DNA of 63,434 nucleotides, the filler included, from Folioceros fuciformis (Eukaryota), in NCBI GenBank assembly GCA_049999805.1. It is 22 parts of 22 records of this genome, joined end to end, with 100 filler letters (N's around TTAATTAATTAA, not from the genome) between each part and the next. Parts side by side here need not be neighbours in the genome. Positions count along the whole stretch, not along the records: positions 21,010 to 24,214 come from JBNGIO010000655.1; 21 more parts are not named here. One strand, 5' to 3'. This document shows, piece after piece, positions 2,850 through 44,700 of the stretch (position 1 is its first letter; each line of letters begins with the position of its first letter). A program made the translations under genes and the position numbers. A model generated the notes under the pieces. It saw nothing but the letters and a program-made list of their open reading frames with translations. It had not been told where the DNA came from and searched no databases.

Positions 2850-5500
2850 TACCAGATACGGGTTAAGGAAGGGGATGAGCACAAGACAGCATTCAAAACC
2901 CGCCATGGCCACTATGAGTGGGTGGTGATGCCCAGGGGGCTCACCAACGCACCAACAACCTTCCAGTGCCTGATGCAGGACATCCTCCGGCCGTTGTTGG
3001 GGCAGGGCGTAGAAGTGTTCCTCGACGACATCCTAATCCGTTCTGTAGATGTAGAGACCCACATAAACCTGGTTAGAGCTGTTCTATTACTCCTACAAAA
3101 GCACCACATGTTAGCCAAGAGGAGCAAGTGCACCTTCATGTGCAAGGAAGTGGACTACCTAGGACACATCGTCACGAGGGATGGCATCAGGATGGACCCC
3201 CGCAAGGTCCAGGCAGTCACAGCATGGCCATTACCCACAGACATCACCCAGCTCAGAGGGTTCCTGGGACTTGCAGGATTCTACGGCCAGTTTATCCAGG
3301 GGTTCAGTAAGATTGCTTTACCCCTGACCGACGCCTTGAAACAGCCCCCCAGCAAATCTTTCAATTTGGATGCAGCAGCACAACTAGCCTTCACCCAATT
3401 GAAACAGGCTCTGAGCTCAAGGCCGGTTTTGGAGGTGGCAGATCCCAAGGGGATCTATCATGTGCACACAGATGCACCAGATCTCGCCCTTGGGGCTGTT
3501 CCGTCCCAGGAGGGACGGGCGATTGCCTACGAGTCCCACAAGCTCCAGGGAGCACAAGTTAATTACCCAATTCATGACAAAGAAATGCTTGGCATCATCC
3601 ATGCACTCAAGGTTTGGAGACATTACCTACTAGGACAGAGGTTCACAATGCACACGGATCACCATTCCCTCCATCACTTCTTCACCCAACCCAACTTGAA
3701 TGCACAACAGCGGAGGTGGTCAGAATACTCAGCTGATTTTAACTTTGAGATTAAGTACATCACTAGAGCCTCTAACTTGGTAGCAAATGCCCTCAGCAGG
3801 CAAGCTCTCACTCTGATGACCTCTCAACTAGATACCATCAGGCTCGTCCGAACAGCCATCCCAGGAGATCCACACTTGCAACACATCAACCAGCAGTTAG
3901 TACAAGACACAGCAGAAGGCATTCCCACAGCTTTCATGCAGACTTACCAACTCAAAGACGCTTGTGTTTACAAGAAGGGTCAACTAGTGATTCCTCAACA
4001 GCTGAAGGAGACCCAGAGAGGGATCCTGCATGATCTACACGACTCTCCCATCTATGGACACCTAGGTATCGACAAAACCTATGATCGGGTGAAAACCCAT
4101 TTCCACTGGGAGGGCCTGCGAAATGATTGCATATAGTGGGTCAGAAGTTGCACCTCCTGTCAACAGACAAAACCAGAGCATCAGAAAACACTAGGGTTGT
4201 TGTTACCTTTACAAGTACCTGACGGAAGATTCCAGTCCACCTCCATGGACTTTGTGACTACCCTTCCCCGCACTCGTACAGGAAAGGACAGCATATGGGT
4301 GGTTATGGACAGAATGTCTAAGTGCTGCCATTTCATTCCAGTAAATTCCAACGTTACAGCTCCACGAGTGGCCAACATATTCACAAAGGAGATCTTTAGG
4401 CTTCACGGGTGCCCCCAGAATATTGTCTTAGACCGGGACCCCAAGTTTATAGCAGGGTTCTGGCGATCCTTCACCGAAACCCTGGGCATCCAATAGAGCT
4501 TGTCCTCCACATGCCACCTCGAGTCAGATGGTCAGACAGAGCATCAAATCCAAGTGCTTGAAGACATGCTGCGGCATTACACACAAGACAAGCAAGGCAA
4601 GTGGGAGGAACTCTTACCCCTCCTCAAGTTTGCCTACAATAGCTCCAAGCACGCTGCCACAGGAGTATCCCCCTTCAAATTGCTATATGGCGAGAATCCA
4701 CCACCACCCGGACTCTGGCCAGCTAGCGAAGCCAAGTGGAGAAGTGCAGCCGAGGTTGCAGAGGTCATATGGCATGAGGTCCACAAGGCCAAGCAGAATC
4801 TCCTGTCAGCTCAAGACCGGGCCAAGAAATCGAGCAACAAGCACAGGCGGGAAATCTCCTACAGCATCGGACAACTGGTGTGGTTGTGAATCCACCCTCA
4901 CAGGTATCCATCACTTCTCCAGCAAAAACACAAGTTGGCGTATCGATTTGCAGGACCCTTCAAGATCTTGTGCAAGGTCAATGAAGTTGCCTACACACTA
5001 GAGCTAGAGCTGCCTACCGAACGGCGCATGTGTCACACCTTCCATGTGAGTATGATGAAGGTAGTGATCTAGAGACCTGCCCAACTCAACCCGCCGCCAC
5101 CTGCAGACCCCGCCACTCAAGACAGTCTGGAAGCCCTAGCCGCCACAGACAGTCTTGCTACTCCACCAGCGCAGGACGTCTCTCCAAGCTCTCCCACGAC
5201 AACCAACCCGACCACTAGACCCCCGGTATCAGTTACACCCCCTCACCTAGAAAGCACGACACGGAAGCGGAACAGATCAGCCCGCCATCCCTAGCTCGAC
5301 GACCTTGTCCAGCCCGACAGAATCCTGGAGGTACGCACCTGTCACCTCAGAAACCGATCTGTCCGTGATTACCTAGTTGGATGGAGCCAGGAACCAGACT
5401 CTTCTGCCACTTGGGAGCCAGAAGATGTCTGCAGACGAATTCCCCACCTTAGCCAGCAGCTGGAGGCCCTGGAGGACCAGGCCTCTTGCAGTGGGGGAGA
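2850..5500 (+). mobile_element. Ty3/gypsy chromovirus pol (RT-RNaseH-integrase-chromodomain), decayed
   Basis: KTAFKTRHGHYEWVVMP, VFLDDILI, RNase H HTDA..AYESHKL, integrase HDSPIYGH..C..C, SMDFVT, DRDPKF, DGQTE, GPF motif, then chromodomain-like PDRILEVR..YLVGW..ATWEPE (about 5310-5425). Contains in-frame stops. PPT GTGGGGGAGAA precedes TGTTAC at 5502. Confidence 0.93.
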
Positions 5501-7300: not shown

Positions 7301-9065
7301 AGTCTAGCAGTTCCAAAGTATACTTTAATCATTAATCTTAATTATAAACTGCCCCATTCTATCCTTCAATGTATTTAGGCTACATTGCATGCTTGCCTTC
7401 ACTGTATCCAACCATCCTTACAAGCTTCTCAACAACGTCTTCAGTACACCCTCCATGAACTGAGCGAACTTTATGTTGCGCCTCATCTCCCCTTCCGATA
7501 ACACCTCTTGTACTTATACATCGATTGCAAGCTTCTAAACAAGTCCTACACCCCTTTATCCCCCTCCTCCTCTTGTTGTCATGCTTTGCCGCTAAACATT
7601 ACACTCATACATAGTTCATTAGTTAAGAACTATTCACATGATACCACATTCCACACACATTAAGCACTACATGATCGTGCTGCATCTTTATGAAAGTGAA
7701 CCATTTGCTTCCTTCAAACACCACAAAATCTCCTCCATCTATATCCACACTTCTCATAGCTGTAGCTTGGCTTCTCAAATCCTCAAATTGGATCACATGA
7801 GCTTGCACATTACGCACACGCACACCTCTACCATATTTCCAACAAGAGAATGCACTTCCAAGACGATGCACTCAAGAGAATACCCTTTCAAGAAGAAGCT
7901 TATTCCACAGAATGCAAGAGAATACAAGCTTACAGCTGCAGCAGACACCGCTGAGCTAGGCCTTTATGCCCGCTACTTAGGGCCTTCTACAATCACGTCC
8001 ACACACACAACAAGGCAATCGCCTATTTTTCACAAATGATTAATGGCAAAGGCCGACAAACCTCGACCGTTCAGCCCCGCCCGTGCGGCTCTCTCTCTCT
8101 TACACACATCAAATCAGATCGAGGCCATCCTCCACACCAAACGCGCGCCCGGACAAGAACACGGCCGAGTTATCTCCCCGCCCACGTCGATTGCCACTAT
8201 AGCCGATCTAATTCCAGCAAGGAATGTTGGGGATGAGCTACAATTTGTTAGAGCAACGGTTGTGGTAGTATCATACAACAGTGATGACTTCGTGCTATAC
8301 GAGGGTTGTGCAAAATTGTCACAGAAAGCTCCGTAGTGGCAGATGCAACCGTTGTGGTTTGCAATCTACAACAAGGAAGCTGTTATTTCGTTTTCGGTTG
8401 ATAGTGGCGAATGGCATGGTAGTGACACTGGTGGTTGCTCTTGATTTTATATAGTGGCAGAGAGTTAATTTCAATAGCTACACAAGTGAAGAATTTGAAC
8501 ATGTTTGCACTTAGATTCACATTGGGATTTATGCTGGATGAAGTAACAGTCGCTGCCCCTTTAGTTTTAAACAGATATATCAAGCTAGTGAACTAAGGTG
8601 CACCCCACTTGTGTACAAGTTTAAACTTACTGTAATTTGTCTCTACCTAAGGCCTTCTCAGTTAAGGTCTTTTCCTTCTTCTATTCAAGTCGTGTCCATT
8701 GCATGTTCGAGGTACATTCTCCTAAGACAACCTGACCTTCCAGCATCTTTTTTCTTGATCTCATTTCGAAGAATGAATGTTTTCTCCTCAATGATGTATC
8801 AGCCCCCTTCTACATAACAAGGTGAGGTGTAGAGGACAAGCCAAGGCTTGCTCTGTTAGCCTCCTCTCCCTCCAAGTTCCGAACTAGCAATCCCACGACC
8901 CCACATGCGTGCTCACACAAGAGTGATTTTGTTTCACGATCACAATCAGTTTAAGCTACAACATGTGTAGAGTGCCTTCTGAACTCTTTTATGAGTCGAC
9001 CATGGTTCGTGGCATTAACTCCACCGCAAATGCATCCTATTCAAGCTCTTCACCTCCTACATGAT

Positions 9066-10334
9066 TGTGGAGTGGAACTTGCACCCAAGAACCACCAAGG
9101 GCCACACTTGTCGTAGTACCAGGATTCGCTCCCAAGGGAGTGAACTAGTGTCAAGGTTTTCTACAATCTTCCCCACTCTACCCTAATCTAATCCTATCTA
9201 TCAGCCAGCTTCTAGACCTAACCACACTACATCAAAAAGATCAGAACTTTGTCTTTAATACCAGATACAATCCCAGTTGAATGAGGACTCAGCATCATCT
9301 TCAGCTCCCACTCCTAGCTCCGGGTATTAGCCACCTGAGAGGAGGTTCCGGCCCTGGCCTCAACCTCCACTCTCAGCCCTAAATGCCAGCGTCTTCAGCA
9401 GCTGATTGAGAACTTCAGCACCTAAGCTTCTCACCCCAGCACAACAGCTCTCTACTCCAGCTCTTCTCCAGCACTTCAAACCTATACTTCAGCACTCCAA
9501 CTCTTCAATCCTTCACCATCACGTTTCACTCCTGTATTTTGAAACACAGCAGCCCCTCACTTGCAGTCCTTGAGGCAGGGATGTGCAGACCCAGGCTAGA
9601 TAGCCTCCTCGGCTCACAGCCCTGCAATCCGTCGCCTTGGAAACCCCTTAGGGACGTCAAGGTACCCCAACCACCCAACCAGCCTGCAAGAAAGGTCAGC
9701 CCCTGGGGATCTGGCCACCCAGATCTCAGCAATTTTGGGAGCCGCCACGTTCCCCTAGTGGCATGGGGAATCAAGGCCGAGGTGCATCTGCACACTGGAT
9801 TAATCCCTCTAACCCAGTAGCCTGCACACAAGGTCAAGGGCACTCTTCACCAAAAAAAGCCTCCCCCTCAATGATAGGCCTGGCCTCTTATACTCCTTGG
9901 CCAGGAACCCCCTGTCACTACCTAACCCGGTCAGTATGCCTCAGACATAACTCCACTTGTCAAAACCCTAAACCTAACTCCAACCTAATCCTAACCCTAA
10001 CTCTCACCTAACCTTAATCCGACCTAATCCTAACCCCAACCTAAGAGGGGTTGTGCCCCCTTTGACACCACTAGTTGACCCTATAAAAAATAACCAGCCT
10101 CTCAAAACTACCAAAATTTGTGAGTGCCTCTCAACACTCCCCTCTCCCTCAGATCATCCTTCAACCCTTCAGAACCTCCACCTTCTTCTAGTCCTCTAGT
10201 CCCCATCCTGTTGGCCAAGGAGGCTCCATGGTCCAGCCTAGCTACCCATTTGATGCCCTTGGGAGGTGACCTTGTAACCATGGCACCTGAAAACATGGCA
10301 CCTGAAAGTGACATCCCACCATCTCCTGCCAACA
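9066..10334 (-). mobile_element. LTR family B, probable solo LTR
   Basis: Left end TGTGGAGTGGAACTTGCACCCAAGAACC matches the PBS-flanked copy at 28626. The right boundary ...CTGCCAACA is inferred; the flanks TGAT/TAAT are only an imperfect TSD. Confidence 0.65.
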
Positions 10335-10895: not shown

Positions 10896-12174
10896 TCCTC
10901 CAAGTGTTCCAAATGTGACTCAAAGTCCACACTGTGCACAAGGACGTCATCTATGTTGCACAATAGGTTGACTGACCCAGCCAAAACTATGTTCATAACC
11001 CTCTGGAAGGTGACTGGAGCATTCTTGAAGCCAAACAACATCACGAGCCACTCCCACAGTTGCTGTGATCCGTAAAAGGCTGTCTTTTTTATGTCCTCCG
11101 GTGCCACTGGCACTTGGTTGAACCCTTGCCTTAGATCCAGTATGGAGAAGTAGACAGATCTGCTGATGTTGTCAAAGATCTCCTCCGGTGTAGGCATAGG
11201 GTACCTGTCCTAGGGTGTCATGGTGCTGATAGGGCGATAATCGCCACACATTCTCTTCTCCGTCCATAAGCCATGGCTATCCTTCTTGGGTGGCATGATA
11301 GTCGCAGCAACGTAATCAAAACTGGAAGGTCTGATTAGCCCTACCTCACATAATTCCTTGCACCTCGCATCCACCATCTCCCACTCAGATTGACTCAGCC
11401 AATACCTTCTACAATATATGGGCTCCGGGCTTGTGAGGTTAATCCTAAAGATTGTGACGTTGCAGCGTTTCAACTCCTTCATGGAGAACGCGAAGCAATC
11501 ACTGTACTTGAGAATCAATGCCCGAATCTGCCTCTGTTGTTCATCAGTGAGCTGTGGTCCCATGTGCCAGTTGAACGTTTCAGCAATGAGTGGCACCTTG
11601 GTTGATGGCTCTTGCCTCACATCCACCTTGAAGGTCGATGCAGAAAAAACAGAGTGGTGCCAAGCAGCATACTCCCCCCCTCTTGCATCGAGCCTGAAAG
11701 GTAGGCAAGGATAGCCAAGGAAAGGTAGGTGCACTGCATCTGCTGGACAAGCCATGGCTACAAGGCCTGCAAGGGTGCCTCTGGTTAGCAGTTGGAAAGC
11801 CAAGCATAAACTCGCAAGCTAAGTGATGGCGTGCAAGTCCATAGCTCGACCGATAGCAACACAGCGCTGAGAGACTGTAACCTGCAGTGCTGCCGTGGCA
11901 TGTGCTGGAAAGCCCATGATCTGCTCACGCTCCTCAACGTGGGGCTCTTCCCATTCCTTTGTGGTGGTGTTGTATAGCAATCCGTGATAGGCAAAGGAGC
12001 CAGGAAAGCTCACCAGGGCAGGCAATGTTTTGCGAGGCTGACTAGGTGTGTTGATTGGATGCTAGGGTGGTCGCTCACTAACAACCACAGGCCTGGGTTC
12101 ATGATCTGCATCCAACACATCTTGCAGCTGCAAGGTGGGATCCCGCTTCGTATTGCGAAGCACGAGTGCCAAGA
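10896..12174 (-). mobile_element. Ty3 pol fragment: C-terminal half of a C5 DNA methyltransferase in frame with RT
   Basis: One frame (ORFs starting 12025, 11803, 11197) broken only by stops: ..EEPHVEEREQIMGFP..QRCVAIGRAMD (motifs IX/X-like), linker, then RT KKD..WTEKRMCGDYRP..DRYPMPTPEEIFD..LDLRQGFNQ..KTAF..FGFKNAP..NIDDVLV. Confidence 0.85.
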
Positions 12175-13849: not shown

Positions 13850-14620
13850 CACACCATCCCCTCCTAGCCTGAAGGCATAAGATTGCGGTGTGCTCATTAG
13901 AGTTGGCCATGCCCTTCTGGCTTCTCCTACTCAATTCACAAGATAAAATGGCAACTTGTCCATCCGCTTCACCTGTTGTGAGCACCTGTCCAACTCAAGG
14001 ATGTCGTCCACGACCTTCTCCTACGAAATCATCAAATTCCTATGTTGCCTAAGCACCTCTAATCTAGCCACATTTGTCCAATAACTGCGAAGCTTGTGTG
14101 CATATGAGCCACACTACACTGCGTTCATGATTAACTCGTTGCCGAACCATGACCGAATCTCCTCATACAGAGACCTGACAGCTGGACGTTTGTCCATGGC
14201 TGCACACACATTCACCAAAATGTACCAGCATCGTGGATTCGCAATCTCGACTTCTCGCACAATTTGTGCAAGCTCAGCAGCCAACAAAATGCCTTCACCT
14301 TTGTCTTTGCTTGTTGTCGAAAATGTCTTGCATTCCCATCCTAGGACCAATATATCCACCGGACTCAACAAGGCTTCTAGCTGCTGCTTGCCCACCAGGT
14401 TCATGTCTGTGGGCAGCCTGCTATGGCAACCTCAAACTACTTCCTCGCTCAACAGCATTGGGTACTGCTTACAAGACCTAAGAATTTGGCTGCTAGCCAC
14501 AGCCCGAGCCTTCTCGTCCTTCTCCACGTAGGTACATTTGCGTACCTTGACGCCACACTACAACACCGCTTCCAGGCCACTACCGATTCCTAAGTAGAGC
14601 TCCAACAGATGGATGCCTTC
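13850..14620 (-). mobile_element. C5 cytosine methyltransferase domain (motifs I-VIII plus variable region) inside a Ty3 polyprotein, decayed
   Basis: Single frame with stops: GIHLLELYLGIGSGLEAVL (I), YVEKD (II), VDILVLGWECKTFS (IV), WYILVNV (VI, ENV with one substitution), NAV*CGSYAHKLRSYWTN (VIII). Same frame as the upstream protease. Confidence 0.85.
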
Positions 14621-17162
14621 AGCACCCACCTTCCATCATACTAGAGCATCATTGATGCGTTGATCTTCTGCCTTGGCAGGCCTCACATTTGGGATCAACC
14701 TCTCAAGACATGTGTCTATAAGATTCCACAGTCAATTCTCCTTCCTTCCCTGGTTTTTTCGAACCCTAGCTTCATCCAAATACTCTGAACGCACAACCTT
14801 CAGCACACACTTCTGCTCTCTTGGCTTCAGCATGTCCAGAGAGGATAACTCTTGCGTTTCCTCCCACACCTCATGTTGATGCTCACTCTGAGCATTGTGG
14901 GCAATCACGGCGCTACCTGTCATTCTTATCCTGCTCTTCCCACCACTCCTGTTCATCCTTAGGGGAATTCATGCAACATGCGTGAAATCTCCTCTCCACC
15001 AGAAGGGTCTGTAGAAGGCTTCTGCGTGCAAGGGATCAACTCCCATAGCAGGACAATGAGTTCCAGCCGACCCTAGCAAGACATCATATGTCTTTGCACT
15101 GGTGACCAAACATCTCACTTTAACAATGCTGGCGTCCTTCGTGCCAGGCTTCAACTCAATCTTCACGGGCTTCCTCGTCATTCCCAGCACCTGTTCCTTG
15201 GTGCTTGTAGAGGTGGTGATGTTCACATCGCTCAGAACGAGCTTGTGCGCTTCAGTGCTTCCTGCCCTCGTGCTCCCTATATCTACTAGGACGTTTACTG
15301 GAGCATAACCATCAAAGTTATGTGCCTCCTAGTGTTATCAATGATGGCAACACCTCCTTCACCTCGCTCCTCTAGCATTAGGTGATCTCCACACAACTTG
15401 GCCATGCGAGGAACAGATCCTACGGATTCAAGCTCCTTCCTCAACCATTCTCACATGATGTTCTTGAAGTTGTTGCCCTTCACACCCGGATCCATGATAC
15501 TTACTGTAGGCACCTCCATGGCCTTGTCCAGCAACACCTCAATGTCTCGACCTGGTCTTGACACCTTCTGTGTTGTGGAGTCCTCTTCGGCCTGGCAGAA
15601 ACTCTCCGGCATCTTGGTCAATTCCCGCTCTAGCACTTCCTTCGTAGTGACGCCTTCACGAAAGTCCACAACAACCTTTTTCTTCTTCTTTTGCACTACC
15701 ATCATGCCAAATGCCCCATCTTCATCAGAGTCAGAGAACAAAATTTTTTTGCCCTGCATTCGGGTGATGAGGAGCACTCCCCGAGCAAAGTCCAGAGGGC
15801 TAGACTCAGGGCCGGTCTTTTTCTCTCCCGAGTGCGGTACACATGCTTTGTAAGTACGTAGGCAGGGGTCCCCTTAGTATTGTAAGAGACCATCACTATT
15901 AATCAGAATCCTTTTCTTCACGAAAAAAATAAAATAAAAAATTTGCCCTGTCCTGCTGGCCATGTTGGCCATCTCCTTCTTGAGCTACTCCACCTGCTCG
16001 AGAAGAGCCTTGCGACTTGGGCGCTTGCTCTTCTCCTTCTCAGCAGATGCAAGCTTGGGCTTCAGCTCTGGGTGAGCTTCCCAACACGCTGCCTCCATGT
16101 GACCCCATCCGCCACAAGACTTATAAGCTTCCTTGCTCTTCGGACTACCTGGCTTGTAGTCGCACTCAAACACCTTGTGCACTCCACGGCATTTGCCACA
16201 CTTCACAGCTGCTTGGCCTGCATTATTAGCTGGCCTCTCCTTCGGCACATGTGGCTGCTTGCCATGTCCTGAGGACTGTGCCTACTCTCGATACTGGTGT
16301 CTTGGGACAAACCTAGAATTCCCGTGTCCTCCAGACCCGTGGTGCAAAGGGGTCTTCACGACTCCGTGATCCTCCAAGTAAGCCTGGCTTACTGCATCAC
16401 CTTTGAGCATCTTCTCAACAATCTGGTAAGCTTCTATCAACTAGTACTTCTCTCCCATCACTCCATGTAGCGAGTCCATCACCTTCCTTCTCTCTGCCTA
16501 GCAGGCAATGCTCCCTTGAAGATCTCGGTGGCCTCCCTCATTGTCTTGACACCCGTGTCTTCTACCGGAACCTTCAATATGAGGTAAGACGCATGCGATG
16601 TCTGGTTAGGCTGAAAGAAAAGCTCGATAGTTCTTGGACCTTTTCCAGCGAAGCTATAGGAAACATGATGGTTAGCTTGGTGAACATCAAGTCCATTAGA
16701 TGCTTGAGCTTTTCTTCGTCAGTGGGGGTGTTCTCAAACCAGCCTTCTTGGCTGCCTCGTGCACTGCCTTTCTTCTCTCGGCCACCTTTAGGATCTCAGC
16801 CTTCTCATCTCTGTAATACATCAAAGCCTCATCATCATGAATGCCATCCTCTGAGTGAACTCATCCTTGTATTTCATCTTGCTTTCTGTCATTGCCCAAC
16901 GGAACTTCTCCTCGAAATCTGCAAGAGATATGCTTCCATGTTTTCCTATGAAGACATCGTTCTTACTTGGTGTGAACTCAAGCTCCATTTTTGTGGACTC
17001 TCTGCTCCAATCCCTGAATTGTCTCCTTGTGACTTGTGCGTCGTCTCTGTGTTGTTCCGGTGTCCTCTTGAATGGTGAGTAGTAGACGTCGTGCACTTCT
17101 GCGACTGAGGACGGTGCAGGTGTCCTCTCGTTAGTCCACCTTGACCTCAGGAATACCATCAA
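14621..17162 (-). mobile_element. gag (two zinc knuckles), aspartic protease and linker of the DNMT-bearing Ty3 element
   Basis: CGKCRGVHKVFEC and (C>Y)KSCGGWGHMEAAC near 16085-16200. Protease VLVDIGS (DTG with ACA>ATA) near 15280 and YDVLLG near 15080. Confidence 0.75.
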
Positions 17163-18056
17163 TGGTTACCTCTCTTATGAATGACAACTAAGTTGCTTGT
17201 AATCAATGGCAGAATTCCTATCCATTAGAAAATATCAGCCTATGACTTAGCACTGTCTTCTGCAACACCCAACCTTCTTGGGTCGCAGCTGTCTCTTGGG
17301 TTTGATGGTGGACGACTTTCACCTCTTCCTCCAATCTCCAGCGCGCCACAGTCTGCTCCAGTACCGTATCCTTGTTCCCAACAAGGTGGATTGCTGATGT
17401 GGTGAAATCAAGATGGAAAATTCTCCCAACTTGGCAATGCAACAGACCACAAGAACCTCCAGGAGACAAAGACACAGCAGGGACGAAGTATGGCTATCTA
17501 TTAGAATAAGATAAACATCAACAATCTGAGAATCCATGGCTGGGTAGCCCACATATATAGGCAAAATCCCTAAGAACTCTCCATGAAGTGCCTCCTCGCA
17601 CGGATGGTGGGCACTTTATAATCTTACTTCTCCTTGGTTGGCCTTTGGTCTATTACCAAATAATAAACAACTAAACAGCCTACTTTGTCCTTTTCTTATT
17701 TTATCATTTTTATATTTGTTTTAGAATATCTCCGCAATGGTTCACATGTGCCTTGGCGTTGCTCCTCACATGCATCCAACACACATGGTTCACATCCACC
17801 ATGACACATACATTCTCTCTCTAAGCATGTCACATGCATCCTTCATCTTCACATGCACACATGCATACATGGCACACACCCATGCATACATGTCATGTGT
17901 AGGCCATCCATGGGCCATTTACATGGCATCATCAAGCACTTTAACATCAAGCTTGTGCCCAAGATGCTCTAGTCCGTATCCAATCATAGAGTCTCAGGTG
18001 CTCTATTCTTCATATAGCAACACCATGACATATCCCCTTTAAAGTGAGGGTAACCA
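17163..18056 (-). mobile_element. Putative 5' LTR (894 bp) of the DNMT-bearing element
   Basis: Bounded by the inverted termini TGGTTACC...GGTAACCA. CCTATATATG TATA-like box on the minus strand near 17555. No TSD; the gag-like ORF starts immediately downstream. Confidence 0.65.
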
Positions 18057-20362: not shown

Positions 20363-20909
20363 TGTGGAGGCAAAACCCCGGGCACTGATTGCCGACAAGT
20401 TCCACCTTTAGTGGCCACACTTATCCCACTGTCGTTGAGACATTGGGTTTCGTTCCCACCAAGGAGCGATGGGGTTCCTTGCTGCTGTGGATGGAGGGTC
20501 CGACTTGATCGACTCGATGATGGATTCGAGGGCTCCCCTCCAGCTCTGATTAGGCGTAGGACAGGCCTCGCTGTCCGGTGGTCAGCTGCACCTCTCTCGG
20601 TGCCCACAAACTCACTCCAGTCACTACAACGACTCTAACCTCTCAGATCTGCGACTTCCTTCACACACTTCACTCACTCTCTCACTCCAGCACCAACACC
20701 AACAACTACCAGCAACCAGCAACAACACCACTACCTTCTACACTTCCCTACAGACTCCTCCTACCCGGCAAGAGTCACTAGACTAACCCCAAACAAAAGG
20801 AAGAAGGGAACACACTCCCCTCTTGGGTATCTCCTCCCCACAACCTTACCAGACGCCATGAGACATGGCCGGCCTACAGCACTTGACCAAGCAAGGAACA
20901 AGAGTGGAC
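20363..20909 (-). mobile_element. LTR family A copy
   Basis: Starts TGTGGAGGCAAAACCCCGGG; near-identical to the other copies. Confidence 0.9.
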
Positions 20910-21868
20910 NNNNNNNNNNNNNNNNNNNNNNNNNNNNNNNNNNNNNNNNNNNNTTAATTAATTAANNNNNNNNNNNNNNNNNNNNNNNNNNNNNNNNNNN
21001 NNNNNNNNNGGGGGCGCGAGATGCAGCGCGTCGGTTCACATCTGGATTGCCTCACCTGCCTGCTCTCGATTGTTGCTACTCCCTTGCAGCGGAAGGATCT
21101 AGTAAAGGCTGTCCAATCCTGATGAAGTAGGTAAGCCCTCCAAAACTTGGCTGAGAAGTTTTGCAATCTGATGGGCGCTGGTGCAGGTTTTATCAATTTT
21201 TGTAAAGTAATGCAGAGCTCGCGATGCACACACAAAGCATAGTTTTTATTAAGCAAGTAATGCCTACATATATGTCCAACCGCTGTGAAACGGTTATAAC
21301 TGAAATTAAACCTATTAAGTAATCTACTTGGTATAACCTAATGTTACATAATATATATCGTATTATTTAACAATTTTTGGGGATTCACCACTTCGAGGAT
21401 TCGGAGCACGGCCTTGGGTGTTGATCCTAGAGGAAGCTTGAAAAGACAACAAGCTGGACATTAATCTTTCCACACGGCTGAGGGTGTTTTGTGACCTGTC
21501 CAGAATCTTCCTCAGCCCCTTCAAAGAATTGATGTCAAATTTGTACTTGCGCCTTGCAGGTGCTTCGCGCACTGTGGGATGTTGCACCACGTTACATACG
21601 TGGCTCACAGGGGCGCAATGACCGCAGACGTAGTGCGCGTCGGAGGGGCCTCCACGCTGCGTAGGTAGAGACCAACGCAAATTGGGGAGGGTTTGCCATC
21701 GGGCGCCTACGCTTCTCGGGGTGCGCGCAGCCTCAAAGGAGAGATGCGCTGTATGACCAGATAGTTGACCTTCAGCAAAGGGTTCCCTGAAGGGCCTACA
21801 TCCGTATCTGCCCCTAGAAGATGCGCGTCTCGGCATGATTCCAGAATTCCTCTAGGTGCATCAGCATG

Positions 21869-22102
21869 GCTTTGATACCATGTGAGAGATGTGATCTAGG
21901 GAGTAGAATACAAATTAAATACTTTTGTTCACATGAGAATGTCTTGCAATAATGATAAATGCCATCAACCACCCTTATTAAATAACTGCCTACTTGTCAT
22001 GCGAAACGGTCTACCATCCACGCCGTTCCGACGGCCGCATCGTTTCAGCTGGGTTTAATTAACATATTATTTTTATGCCTAAATGCATTATATATCCTGA
22101 CA
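21869..22102 (-). mobile_element. Short LTR (about 21881-22102) with tRNA-iMet PBS
   Basis: GCTTTGATACCA (reverse complement TGGTATCAAAGC) abuts TGTGAG; candidate other end ...CCTGACA. Confidence 0.55.
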
Positions 22103-22199
22103 ATTGAGACCCATCCTAATCCCCTTCAAAGAATATTATATAGAAAACCTCATTCATGTATATAAACACCCTTGCAAATTTATCGTGTGGTTAAGTGGA

Positions 22200-22370
22200 C
22201 TTATGGTACGAGAGAATGGATTCTTATCTCAAGAAGTTGGGGTTCATCCAAGGTGAAGCAAATACTAACATCTATGTACTTCGTTAGGATAGCTCACTTG
22301 TACTTGTTGCCCTATATGTCGATGACTTAGTCATTCCAGGCAATAATGTTGATTTGGTCAACAAGATAAA
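22200..22370 (+). mobile_element. Ty1/copia RT fragment
   Basis: WYERMDSYLKKLGF..IYV..ALYVDDLVI. Confidence 0.8.
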
Positions 22371-23232
22371 ATGGTGCACACACATAAGAGAGCTCTGAGA
22401 AAATATTGCTTGGTAATTGATAAAATGAGTGGGATAGAATGTTACCTTTCCTTACAATGGTTTATAGGATGAGTAGACAAGTGTCTTTGGGGAAAGTTTT
22501 CACCTTACATGTTATTGTTTGGATGAAGGCCACATTTGTCTAGGATGGCAGCAAACAAGGTGGACACTGTTGTGAAGTTGGATGACCCCAATCAATGGTT
22601 AAAGATAATCAGGCATAGAGCAGAGTTGTTTAAGAGGGTTATGCCTATGGCGATGGATAACTTGTTGATAGCTCAACATAGGGATGAGTTGAGATATAGG
22701 AAAACAAGGAGTGGTCATTTCAAACCTAAAATGAAATTTGAAATAGGGGATTATGTGTACTTGCAGAGAAAGACGTTGACAACTATTGACACAAGTGCTA
22801 GTTGGATAATATTGAGGGTGAGGAGTGTGAAGCCAAATGGAGTCTTGGAGCTTGAAGGGAGGGATGGTACAACTTGTTTGGAACACATGAAAAACTGTGC
22901 ACTGTGTCATTTGCCTCACTTGAACCGGGCGATTAATGTTCAAGCTTTCATACCAAGGGATTTGCTTATACGGGATGTGGAGATCCGAGTAGTAATCAAT
23001 GCATGTTGTTATGTGATAGATGCAATGATGGATGGCACATCCTCTATTTGGAACCGCCATTAGAGGCGATGCTTGATGGACAGTGGTTTTGTCCAATGTG
23101 TGTGACAATTGATACATTGTAAGAAGAACATTATATTTTGATTGAGGTAGATTGAGGATGATGTGTGTAATACATTTTATGAGCATTTTTGTTTTGCCAA
23201 CAAAAGTTGGGCAGTAAATTAAGGGGGGGAGG
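22371..23232 (+). mobile_element. Ty3 integrase C-terminus with a PHD finger, followed by a PPT
   Basis: KRALRKYCL, FSPY.LLFG, NLLIAQHRDELRY..FEIGDYVYL..LRV..GVLELEGRDG..NCALCHLP. An alternative frame at 23003-23105 gives MLLCDRCNDGWHILYLEPPLEAMLDGQWFCPMC (PHD). PPT AAGGGGGGGAGG precedes TGGTGACCCT at 23233. Confidence 0.85.
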
Positions 23233-23425
23233 TGGTGACCCTAAGATGTATTATGTTTCACTCATCGAGGGAGAGGGAGCAGAGAAGCTGCTCCTTGAAG
23301 TGAATCGATCTCGTGTGAAGTGAGCCACCAAAGAGTGGAATGATGACCAGTAGCCTTGGTGTGCACGACGGGGAAGAAGCACTCAAGGGGAGGCATCTAC
23401 GTATTGCTAGTTATGATCACCCACT

Positions 23426-24130
23426 CACATATCCAGCAGCCAACACAGCCTCTAAACTAGATGCAATCCCAGCAAACAGCTCAACCATGACCAATCCATA
23501 CACAGATGAACTCAAAGTTACAAGTCTATTACAAATAGGTTAAAGTTTACAAATTGCTTCCATTGTACAAGGTTGAATCTTATGATCTAGCTAAAACTCA
23601 GTCTGTCATTTTTCAAGCTCTCTAAGAATTTCAGCTAATGCTCTACCAATACTTGCTCTCATTGAATCCTCCTCCAGTTTGATGTTACTACACTCTTTAA
23701 AGCACAACTTACACATATGACTCATAATCCACAATCTATCCTCTTCATCTTGTCCTTCTAGGGAAGTCGCCATATTTACTATGCATGCATCTTGCCCATC
23801 CTCTTGCAACTGCAACTTGAGCGGAATTGTTGTAAAGTTCATCCCATCTCATTGTCGCCAACTTGCACGATATTAAAACTCCTTTGTCCACAAATCCACC
23901 CCTCCTTCTGGCATAAGCAAGCTTCTGTTCCTAAGATAACATCAAAGTTTCCAGATTTAACAATTAAACACTTTATACCAATTGTAGTCTCTTCCTTTGT
24001 GCAAGGCTGAAGACATACTTGCAGTTTTCCTTAGTCTCCCCCATCATTGCCTTCAGACCCCCATTGGCCATTCTAATTTTCCATCTTGTTTCTTGTATAT
24101 CTCCTCTTCTCAGCCCTAGGAATGACTATG
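23426..24130 (-). mobile_element. Third DNMT-bearing Ty3 fragment: protease C-terminus, linker and DNMT motif I
   Basis: LQPCTKEETTIGIKCLIVKSGNFDVILG..GVDLWTKEF*YRASW aligns with the protease at 14969-15226. GLVMVELFAGIASSLEAVLAAG (23497-23432) is in frame with ORF 23606..23842. Confidence 0.78.
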
Positions 24131-24314
24131 ACGTTTAAGGAACAAACCCAGTAAGTCTCACTGCAACGACTAATCAGGAGTGGTACCTCGAGGTATGCAC
24201 CTAGACCACAGCATNNNNNNNNNNNNNNNNNNNNNNNNNNNNNNNNNNNNNNNNNNNNTTAATTAATTAANNNNNNNNNNNNNNNNNNNNNNNNNNNNNN
24301 NNNNNNNNNNNNNN

Positions 24315-27228: not shown

Positions 27229-28151
27229 TGTGGAGGCAAAACCCCGGGCACTGATTGCCAACGGGTTCCACCTTTAGTGGCCACACTTATCCCACTGTCG
27301 TTGAGACATTGGGTTTCGTTCCCACGAAGGAGCGATGGGGTTCCTTGCTGCTGTGGATGGAGGGTCGGACTTGATCAACTCGATGATGGATTCGAGGGCT
27401 CCCCTCCAGCTCTGATCAGGCGTAGGACAGGCCTTGCTGTCCGGCGGTCAGCTGCACCTCTCTCGGTGCCCACCAACTCACTCTTGTCACTACAACGACC
27501 CTAACCTCTCAGATCTGTGACTTCCCTCACTCACTTCACTCACTCTCTTACTCCAGCACCAACACCAACAACTACCAGCAACCAGCAACGACACCACTAC
27601 CTTCTACACTTCCCTACGGACTCCTCCTACCCGGCAAGAGTCACTAGACTAACTCCAAACAAAAGGACGAAGGGAACACACTCCCCTCTTGGGTATCTCC
27701 TCCCCACAACCTTACCAGACGCCATGAGACATGGCCGGCCTACAACACTTGACCAAGCAAGGAACAAGAGTGGACAGGTCGAGAGGAAGACACACCCTTT
27801 ATAATCAAGAGCTAGGGGCAAGCCCCTTCACCCTGGTCATTACACCTTGTGATCCTACCAGACACTATACAACTGGCAACACGCTGCCCGCGATCCTACC
27901 AGACACTGTACAGCCGGCAACACGCTGCCTGCGATCCTACCAGACACTGCACAGCCGGCAACACACGGCTTGCGATCCTACCAGACGTTGCACAGCCGGC
28001 AACACACTGCAGGTCCTAAACCAAGCAGGGACAGACCACAAGAGCTCAAGAAGCGAGGACCTCCAAGAGCTCACAAAGAGATAGACTGACTCCCAAAAGT
28101 GAATGACTCCCTCCTCCTACAGGCTCACCTGATCTTATAGGAGCCTCTCTC
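27229..28151 (-). mobile_element. LTR family A copy inserted in ORF-X
   Basis: The insertion splits the (V)KWKP codons that are intact at 39006 and 51542. Confidence 0.9.
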
Positions 28152-34555: not shown

Positions 34556-35321
34556 TGTGGAGGCAAAACCCGGGCACCGATCGCCAACGGGTTCCACCTT
34601 TAGCGGCCACACTTATCCCACTGTCGTTGAGACATTGGGTTTCGTTCCCACGAAGGAGCGATGGGGTTCCTTGCTGCTGTGGATGGAGGGTCGGACTTGA
34701 TCGACTCGATGACGGATTCGAGGGCTCCCCTCCAGCTCCGATCAGGCGTAGGACAGGCCTCGCTGTCCGGCGGTCAGCTGCACCTCTCTCGGTGCCCACA
34801 AACTCACTCCAGTCACTACAACGACTCTAACCTCTCAGATTTGCGTCTTCCCTCACACACCTCACTCACTCTCTCACTCTAGCACCAACACCAGCAACTA
34901 CCAGCAACCAGCAACGACACCACTACCTTCTACACTTCCCTACGGACTCCTCCTACCCGGCAAGAGTCACTAGACTAACCCCAAACAAAAGGAAGAAGGG
35001 AACACACTCCCCTCTTGGGTATCTCCTCCCCACAACCTTACCAGACGCCATGAGACATGGTCGGCCTACAGCACTTGACCAAGCAAGGAACAAGAGTGGA
35101 TAGGTTGAGAGAAAGACACACCCTTTACAATCAAGAGCTAGGGGCAAGCCCCTACACCCTGGTCATTACACCTTGTGATCCTATCAGACACTATATAACC
35201 GGCAACACGCTGCCCGCGATCCTACCAGACACTGTACAGCCGGCAACACGCTGCCCGCGATCCTACCAGACACTGTACAGCCGGCAACACACGGCTTGCG
35301 ATCCTACCAGACGTTGCACAG
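34556..35321 (-). mobile_element. LTR family A copy
   Basis: Near-identical to the other copies. Confidence 0.9.
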
Positions 35322-43781: not shown

Positions 43782-44700
43782 TCCCCGGCAACGACGCCAA
43801 AAATGTGGTGGCAAAACCCGGGCAATGTTTGCCAACGAGTTCAACCTTTAGCGGCCACACTTATCCTACTATCGTTGAGACGTTGGGTTTCATTCCCACG
43901 AAGGAGCAATGGGGTTCCTAGCTGCTTTGGATGGAGGGTCGGACTCAATCGTTGCGATGACGGATTCGAGGGCTCCCCTCCAGCTCCGATCAAGCGCGGG
44001 ACAGTCCTCGCTGTCCAGCGGTCAACTGCACCCCTCTCAGTGCCCACAAACTCACTCCAGTCACTACAACGACCCTAACCTCTCAAATCTGCGACTTCTC
44101 TCACTCACTCACTCACTCCAACACCAGCATCCAGTAACCAGCAACGACACCACTACCTTCTACACTTCCCTATGGACTCTTCCTACCCGGCAAGAGTCAC
44201 TAGACTAACCCCAAAGAAGAACATGCCACCACCCACGATCCTACCAGACACCATGCAAGCATGGTCGGCAGTCACTCCTGCCCTGCGAGGAAATGAAAAT
44301 GATAGATCATGGGGACACGACACAGAGAGCACAATCAAAACTAAAAGGAACCTCGCCCTTAACCCTGGCCACCACTTCTCAAAGCTTTACCAGACACTAC
44401 ACACATGCACAGCCAGCATACACACTGCTGTACCCAAGCAGGGACAGCCTGAGAGAGCTCGCAAAGTGATAACCTGCCTCCTACAGCCTCACCTGATCTT
44501 TATACGAGCCTCTCTCTCTATGACTTCACCTCTCTCTATCTTGACAAATATTATTTTAATAGGACCACTAGCCTAGCCGGCTGTCTCCAGCCACTTATGT
44601 AGACTTTCCTAGCACATCCTGCCACCAATGAGCTGGCCCTATGACTTGCTGACCCTACCACCACAAGTATCTACCACCTCTTAAACTACCTTGAGACTTT
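43782..44700 (-). mobile_element. Diverged family A 5' LTR (from 43804) with tRNA-Asp PBS (43782-43799)
   Basis: ...GCCACCACA TTTT TGGCGTCGTTGCCGGGGA on the minus strand; followed by a possible gag start (ORF 43400..43726). Confidence 0.85.

Follow-up and report, generated by a model that had tools for sequence, protein, structure and literature searches.

A PHD-bearing integrase end in Folioceros fuciformis belongs to a green-plant Ty3/Gypsy lineage with a DNMT3-type domain and split terminal repeats

We found that positions 22,370 to 23,425 of the window (the whole stretch of Folioceros fuciformis DNA analyzed here, 63,434 nucleotides long) are the decayed 3' end of a Ty3/Gypsy retrotransposon from a green-plant lineage whose sister copies encode a single polyprotein with the order gag-protease (PR)-DNMT3-type methyltransferase (DNMT)-reverse transcriptase (RT)-RNase H (RH)-integrase (INT)-PHD, an identity and architecture that we regard as nearly certain. 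The fragment is real but dead, and the lineage is large and partly young. Taken as a whole, the material is probably best explained by a Ty3/Gypsy element that combines a PHD-bearing integrase, a DNMT3, split repeats, and a proposed integration by way of a circle.

The window consists of short contigs with N44-TTAATTAATTAA-N44 linkers between them, so that sequences on either side of a linker are possibly unlinked. The studied copy lies on contig JBNGIO010000655.1 (C655; positions 21,010 to 24,214). Homology to its family, designated A, begins at about 22,370 in blastn comparisons with sister copies, downstream of the integrase catalytic core. On the plus strand there follow a broken remnant of the end of the integrase core, past the catalytic residues (22,370 to 22,526; tblastn match of the core at 22,356 to 22,489), the integrase C-terminal region of family A (INT-C, 22,527 to 22,951; open reading frame 22,527 to 23,063), a decayed C4HC3 PHD finger and a stop (22,952 to 23,122), a polypurine tract (PPT; 23,221 to 23,232) with the same place and sequence type as in the other family A copies, and a truncated terminal repeat B, called the LTR in the initial annotation, of whose 467 bp the first ~190 are present (23,233 to 23,425) and match the 3' tails seen in family A. 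Directly 3' of the PPT the sequence reads TGGTGACCCT. The INT-C is mostly 71 to 81% identical in amino acids to family A copies and 57% to family D. Translation of positions 22,952 to 23,119 (plus strand) gives ...AYTGCGDPSSNQCMLLCDRCNDGWHILYLEPPLEAMLDGQWFCPMC, which scored 32.2 bits against PF00628 (E 1.1e-7; cut-off, 24) and matched none of the Pfam chromodomain families, bearing out the initial annotation, which had placed a PHD finger and not a chromodomain at the end of this integrase; its best PDB matches were ATXR5, Lid, KDM5A PHD1, and BAZ2A. The further reading that the integrase C terminus itself runs into a partly decayed finger held for the finger but not for the frame: the PHD frame differs from that of the INT-C, so a frameshift separates the two, and zinc ligands 1 and 6 are Tyr, leaving six of eight. 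With its PHD out of frame and short of two ligands, the window copy is dead; all eight ligands are retained in 10 of 18 sister copies. Pfam returned nothing for the short or decayed window pieces at 22,527 to 23,060, 13,850 to 14,641 (a DNMT half), 23,429 to 23,512, and 22,230 to 22,379, with one frame, and probably that of 22,230 to 22,379, being wrong.

The same contig continues with an inverted piece of family A (23,426 to 24,112, minus strand), which contains the end of the protease, a linker, and DNMT motif I. At the DNA level it is 77 to 84% identical to family A loci L024, L025, L026, L030, and L040 and has no match in families B and D, and its motif I part agrees with the L040 DNMT at 30 of 36 amino acids (E 4e-19). 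The earlier view that the window holds no physical linkage between DNMT and PHD sequences must be amended to this extent; the remaining window DNMT pieces do lie on other contigs. Immediately upstream of the family A fragment, a Copia-like RT fragment (YVDDL) was recognized by eye at 21,860 to 22,369, where Pfam in one frame found nothing, as was a tRNA-Met-type primer site near 21,870 to 21,881 on the minus strand. Elsewhere, the window contains copies of another element, 87 to 96% alike and with 41-bp tandem units (1,927 to 2,849, 20,363 to 20,909, 27,229 to 28,151, 34,565 to 35,321, and 43,813 to 44,218), and another Ty3-type RT-RNase H fragment (2,853 to 3,800).

The full architecture was read from sister copies. 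A DNA search of the Folioceros genome yielded 46 matches, and among the 20 PHD-anchored loci fetched, five (the family A loci named above) carry PR or DNMT, RT, INT, and PHD in this order on a single contig. The first screen saw no DNMT in the other 15, of which L022 later gave a short DNMT piece; L033 has lost gag-PR-DNMT through an internal deletion. Family D supplies an unbroken frame of 2,299 amino acids that holds all the domains, gag-PR-DNMT-RT-RH-INT-PHD, and one 9,251-nt contig of run X3, which comes from a different study than X1 and X2 and is only guessed to be RNA, spans the element. The order proposed in the initial annotation is thus found on single contigs, and these contigs, carrying both domains, contradict the notion that PHD integrases occur only in elements without a DNMT.

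The pieces within the window itself could not be assembled into one element and were assigned to three families. The PHD end belongs to A. A decayed 5' part with repeat A, gag, protease, and the N-terminal half of a DNMT (13,850 to 18,030, minus strand, on a separate contig, 85 to 87% identical to L060 and L067) belongs to B. A piece with the C-terminal half of a DNMT and an RT (10,896 to 12,174, minus strand, also on a separate contig; RVT_1, E 4.5e-15) belongs to C, which is 68% identical to family D in DNA and its sister in the RT tree (support, 97). The suggestion that the PHD end and the DNMT element of the window share a lineage was correct insofar as family B copies also end in INT-PHD, but the two are separate families, with DNMTs that are 33 to 36% identical. 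The resemblance that had been cited for it, a 9-of-10 match between the starts of their terminal repeats, is due to chance: five matches with no more than one mismatch occur in the window, against 5.9 expected from shuffles. Moreover, the element with the DNMT ends at a TGTCATG terminus at 18,030, so that position 18,056, taken earlier as the start of its repeat, is 26 bp outside it, and the cited 10-mer (18,047 to 18,056, minus strand) is flanking DNA.

In the sister copies, the Pol order PR-RT-RH-INT with a DDE integrase (rve, H2C2), the PPT, TG...CA ends, and a 4-bp target site duplication (TSD) are all those of a Ty3/Gypsy element, of which the window copy retains INT-C, PHD, and PPT only. 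Two direct long terminal repeats (LTRs) around the internal region are not found; the repeats are instead split and permuted, in the order A...B.A/B. That both the domain linkage and this repeat order were produced by assembly of a fragmented short-read genome is highly improbable: joining of contigs by N linkers in the window, the 100% identity of the ends of C6226, and family B deletions joined at 8- to 20-bp repeats would fit such an origin, but it is contradicted by the unbroken family D frame, by P0004 and other unrelated public proteins with an identical order, and by the spanning contig from another study and the target duplications at both ends. The family B deletions concern six copies (L052, L059, L068, L044, L056, and L058) with differing internal losses, all without RT; five of them are ~99% identical to L067, and in L052 and L059 the reading frame stays open from the DNMT to the INT-PHD. 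All six may be genuine non-autonomous copies or may stem from assembly joins, and their pattern is biased, since the copies were found through DNMT or PHD searches.

The PHD finger of the lineage was then compared with solved fingers, the nearest of which in sequence are KDM5 PHD1, Lid, WSTF, BAZ2, UHRF1, and ATXR5. The full C4HC3 pattern was matched by 99 of 128 homologues. At the cage position, which we take to be Trp in H3K4me3 readers (ING2, BPTF), 87 of these 99 have Gly and none has Trp, and Asp, which would contact R2, follows Cys3 in 93. The combination of C4HC3, no aromatic cage, and Asp after Cys3 is that of a finger reading unmodified H3K4; KDM5A PHD1, according to passages of one report, prefers unmodified H3, and fingers of this kind lack the aromatic cage (10.1101/715474). 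In its residues the PHD is thus like fingers that read unmethylated H3K4, and a role as a tether to unmodified H3 is rather likely by this likeness. Riding on the integrase and binding the unmethylated H3 tail, it would tether integration to chromatin or nucleosomes without H3K4me3.

The methyltransferase is of the DNMT3 type, since all 29 PDB sequence matches were DNMT3A, -B, or -C, and its structural model (pLDDT, 96) has DNMT3 within the top ten at TM scores of 0.67 to 0.72. The catalytic Cys, the Glu of EN (ENV), and both Arg of RxR are present in all 62 DNMT rows compared. The residue before the catalytic Cys in motif IV is Glu in 39 of the 62 and Pro in 21, and all three families read have Glu-Cys in place of the Pro-Cys dipeptide of DNMT3; motif I has Cys for Phe in 19 rows, and Pfam scores straddle the cut-off (19.5 to 33 bits versus 22). 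On the strength of fold and catalytic residues, the enzyme is predicted, with fair confidence, to be active, in which case it would methylate the element's own cDNA or the new insertion. A catalytically dead or merely DNA-binding passenger would agree with the change of PC to EC in most rows, with the altered motif I, and with the inactivity of KnitGypsy-Dnmt3 in yeast, as given in passages of PMC5890265, and CpG loss in the elements is not special; nevertheless, such a passenger seems unlikely, given that no row departs from the catalytic Cys and Glu or from the two Arg, although families are only 32 to 41% identical to one another in this domain. Depletion of CpG as a trace of self-methylation was discarded, as the values for the elements (0.35 to 0.54) overlap those of other stretches of the window (0.44 to 0.67) and do not discriminate.

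Both extra domains were, by their codon positions, formerly under purifying selection in family A. Changes shared by at least two copies fell at codon positions 1, 2, and 3 in the numbers 36, 26, and 90 for INT-C, 15, 15, and 32 for the PHD, and 3, 4, and 16 for the DNMT (counted in five family A copies only). Changes private to one copy were much more even (66, 60, and 63; 25, 24, and 28; and 36, 22, and 44, respectively). The concentration of shared changes at third positions indicates that both domains were important during the family's active period.

A protein search with INT-C plus PHD gave 152 matches from 150 scored candidates, and of the 28 long proteins retrieved by a search with only the DNMT, 24 contain PF00628. 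Named relatives come from Monoraphidium, Pleodorina, Volvox, Tetrabaena, Astrephomene, Haematococcus, Hariotina, Tetraselmis, Coleochaete, Closterium, and Marchantia (Mp7g09570), the nearest being those of Coleochaete, Closterium, and Marchantia; these database proteins confirm that PHD-bearing Ty3 elements exist in green algae, as had been stated. The Marchantia polymorpha gene, annotated as "PHD-type domain" (P0067), is a remnant of the lineage with a DNMT part, an integrase part, and a PHD. Among the relatives, the DNMT stands either before the RT, as in the Folioceros families, or between RNase H and integrase. In an RT tree of 150 rows built by a quick method, from which 45 proteins with short or multiple RT matches were excluded (one family A row and P0065 among them), the RNase H-DNMT-integrase form occurs solely within a clade of 82 rows (support, 99), and the form with the DNMT before the RT lies outside it and is largely unresolved. 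A single relocation of the DNMT would be the simplest reading of the two positions. Rows bearing a chromodomain and animal Ty3 rows make up a separate clade of 27 (support, 98). P0065, a public protein, has the order RT-RH-DNMT-INT-PHD plus a chromodomain.

It had been proposed that the PHD finger is a chromatin reader paired with the methyltransferase as writer. Both domains do occur in one element, and in such a pair the PHD would guide or activate the DNMT, so that new insertions would be methylated where H3K4 is unmethylated. In animal DNMT3 the ADD domain guides or activates the enzyme. The co-occurrence of the two domains across streptophyte and chlorophyte relatives, the position of the DNMT nearer the PHD in the 82-row clade, and the purifying selection on both would favor a functional pair, which we nonetheless regard as doubtful. 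In the Folioceros families the RT, RNase H, and integrase core separate the two domains, and in Ty3 Pol the protease should part such domains by cleavage. Furthermore, a nine-row clade with Closterium (support, 99) has kept the DNMT motif GWEC, and six of its seven tails read are complete and without a PHD; conversely, the two volvocine proteins P0096 and P0099 have kept the PHD, and no DNMT was detected in the predicted proteins. (Some tree rows labeled as lacking a PHD, namely P0172, P0227, and P0255, have degenerate PHDs.) A working reader-writer pair is therefore unsupported by the distribution, which makes coupling possible and not required, and PHD and DNMT, as far as sequences tell, are best seen as separate modules and not as an obligate pair.

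The order of the terminal repeats was read from sites other than 13 junctions that were listed without DNA. Family D contig C6246 has the order A1 (470 bp)-internal region-PPT-B1 (111 bp)-GC-A2-B2, with ends TGTC...GACA and the TSD ATCT. Family B likewise has the order A-internal-B-A-B, with a TACT duplication across a gap, and its repeat after the PPT begins TGTTGACGGG; the same split order was read at the 3' ends of two further families. For family A, B1-GC-A2 is present in C6341, and C5954, which contains one B and a long run of N's, has AAGT on both sides. Solo A/B units with an exact 4-bp TSD numbered 14 of 16 in family B, two of two true solos in family D, and four of seven complete units in family A, the other three being one mismatch off. 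Two of four presumed family D solos proved to be 3' ends with an AC spacer, and the short family A matches L163 and L190 were rejected as A/B units. The flanks of family B (sites L102 to L130) show a target preference, AGG-N4-CCT, around the 4-bp duplication (A in 27, G in 25, and G in 35 of 45). Beside one family B insertion, L053 has at 8,982 to 9,765 a frame with QxxDGSWG, presumably the motif of terpene cyclases, and possibly a host gene.

Minus-strand synthesis in these elements is probably self-primed. Whereas tRNA primer sites start with TGG, the site that follows A1 has no TGG start and is complementary to the element's own 5' repeat A, over 21 nt in family D and 14 nt in family B, compared with no more than 12 nt in controls at 1,000 positions per family. 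A complement of at least 13 nt was found in 8 of 14 family A copies, and that of family B is located ~25 nt below a TATA box.

The attachment ends, GACA-2 bp-TGTC, are situated inside the terminal repeat, between B and A. With a self-primed minus strand and a PPT-primed plus strand, the cDNA would be linear, B.A-internal-B.A, and its ends would not be attachment sites. Joining of these ends would give a circle and create the A/B joint, and the DDE integrase would open the circle at the internal GACA-NN-TGTC junction, yielding the insertion A-internal-B.A/B flanked by a 4-bp target duplication. In every copy in which it was read, the B.A spacer measures 2 bp. The A/B joint, on the other hand, is ragged, with zero, one, and two extra PPT guanines in four, two, and three close copies of family D and one extra base in 2 of 19 in family B. 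Variation of the joint by bases derived from the PPT and the primer, together with a fixed spacer, supports an end-joined circle, even though the raggedness could be inherited by subfamilies. The 5' end of C5845 reads A-gap-B.A-primer site, which corresponds to the alternative opening of a two-repeat circle and also supports the circle route, although this is a single contig with an assembly gap. Pairs of ends with matching flanks were observed as well: CGTT flanks both the 5' end of C5845 and the 3' end of C1477 (L127 and L069), and in family D C5050 and C5615 share GGGG and C5882 and C2388 share TCGT, on different contigs. Such pairs may be the two ends of one insertion in reciprocal order.

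Split repeats could also arise by a linear route, in which RNA running through A2 into B2 is copied, or an extra strand transfer takes place, to give an ordinary linear end with no circle. The TG...CA termini with 4-bp TSDs are those of ordinary linear substrates, no circular DNA was observed, and the looping contig of the X3 study is expected from repeats alone. Against this, B directly adjoins the PPT and the end of A adjoins the primer site, an arrangement in which standard synthesis places the attachment ends inside the cDNA; in addition, the joint varies by PPT- and primer-derived bases, and C5845 has the reciprocal order. We consider the linear route a substantial alternative but the less probable one. 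The end-joined circle opened at the internal junction is the simplest route, to which we would give about even odds. Family A tempers it: among 16 3' tails examined, a true B end was resolved in 12, of which 11 have a single B and no A2 and run into unique flank. Such ends require recombination at a later stage, a collapse in the assembly, or a different route.

Judged by its published description, the closest known system is KnitGypsy-Dnmt3 of Klebsormidium nitens (de Mendoza et al. 2018, PMC5890265), which passages of that paper portray as a Gypsy Pol with an unrearranged Dnmt3-type domain under purifying selection, with Gypsy domains and repeats "the same as that of a DIRS retrotransposon" and with no methylation in yeast, a result that its authors call inconclusive. 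The Folioceros families share with it the unrearranged Dnmt3-type domain inside a Gypsy Pol and, as far as a figure legend tells, the split direct repeats (families A, B, and D and two more). Our protein-search matches for the lineage included no protein named from Klebsormidium. The text of PMC5890265 and three of its supplements do not mention a PHD, although its Fig. 4c may draw one, and its passages give no TSD, self-priming, or integration model for KnitGypsy-Dnmt3; nor did our literature search find an element with both PHD and DNMT3 or any description of TSDs or of a circle route in this group. The EpiLTRs/DAM-LTRs (Fernandez-Moreno et al., 10.64898/2026.05.21.726589) combine a chromodomain, DAM, and DNMT in LTR elements, and passages of that report leave a PHD finger unmentioned. 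They too join a histone reader to a DNA methyltransferase, but DAM and chromodomain are absent from the 2,299-amino-acid frame of family D. Chromoviruses, according to passages of Neumann et al. (2019, PMC6317226) in which "PHD" does not appear, carry a chromatin reader at the integrase C terminus, and self-priming is predicted for Tcn1. In the Folioceros elements, unlike in chromoviruses, a PHD replaces the chromodomain (PF00385 was not found), and the chromodomain-bearing matches fall into their own RT clade, with the chromodomain- and PHD-bearing P0065 being outside the tree. REM1 of Chlamydomonas has a PHD and a chromodomain in a separate frame. Fusions of PHD and retrotransposon are, in passages of Grau-Bove (10.1101/2021.11.30.470311), mainly cnidarian and of another lineage, and the supplements of that work may list the present one.

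The split order A-B-A-B is that of DIRS-order elements. In the Ngaro/PAT type the ends are A1-internal-B1-A2-B2 and are thought to derive from a circular intermediate. DIRS-order elements integrate by a tyrosine recombinase, whereas the Folioceros families have a DDE integrase (rve, H2C2), TG...CA ends, and a 4-bp TSD, the recombinase being judged from the Pol frame with rve and H2C2. Two other candidates were set aside by their published descriptions in part: Troyka (PMC12440569) has CG...CG ends and a 3-bp TSD and is restricted to animals, versus TGTC...GACA and 4 bp here, and Phygy (PMC6317226) has the target preference NCGN, versus family B TSD columns without a CG core and AGG-N4-CCT flanks. 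For retroelements with a DDE integrase, circles are usually taken as dead ends. An exception has been argued for foamy virus, in passages reporting that its DDE integrase cuts the palindromic att-att junction of the 2-LTR circle (Delelis et al. 2005, PMC1180852). That junction, as described there, is a joint of cDNA ends; the Folioceros one would be a built-in site inside the repeat, on which every full insertion depends. For the whole green-plant Ty3/Gypsy clade, we put forward tentatively, and with somewhat less assurance than for the circle by itself, that an end-joined circular cDNA would be opened by the DDE integrase at a built-in GACA-NN-TGTC, with an integrase carrying a PHD for unmodified H3 and a DNMT3 methylating the element's own new copy.

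The main weight of the finding lies in the ends of the family and in the circle model rather than in the window copy. Programs that search for LTRs probably miss such elements because of the split repeats, though a protein search found more than 150 matches. A natural family whose insertions resemble opened circles makes the circle question testable with short DNA substrates. The replacement of the chromodomain by a PHD points to a second, independent choice of chromatin by plant retrotransposons, and host genomes may gain methylation from a mobile DNMT3.
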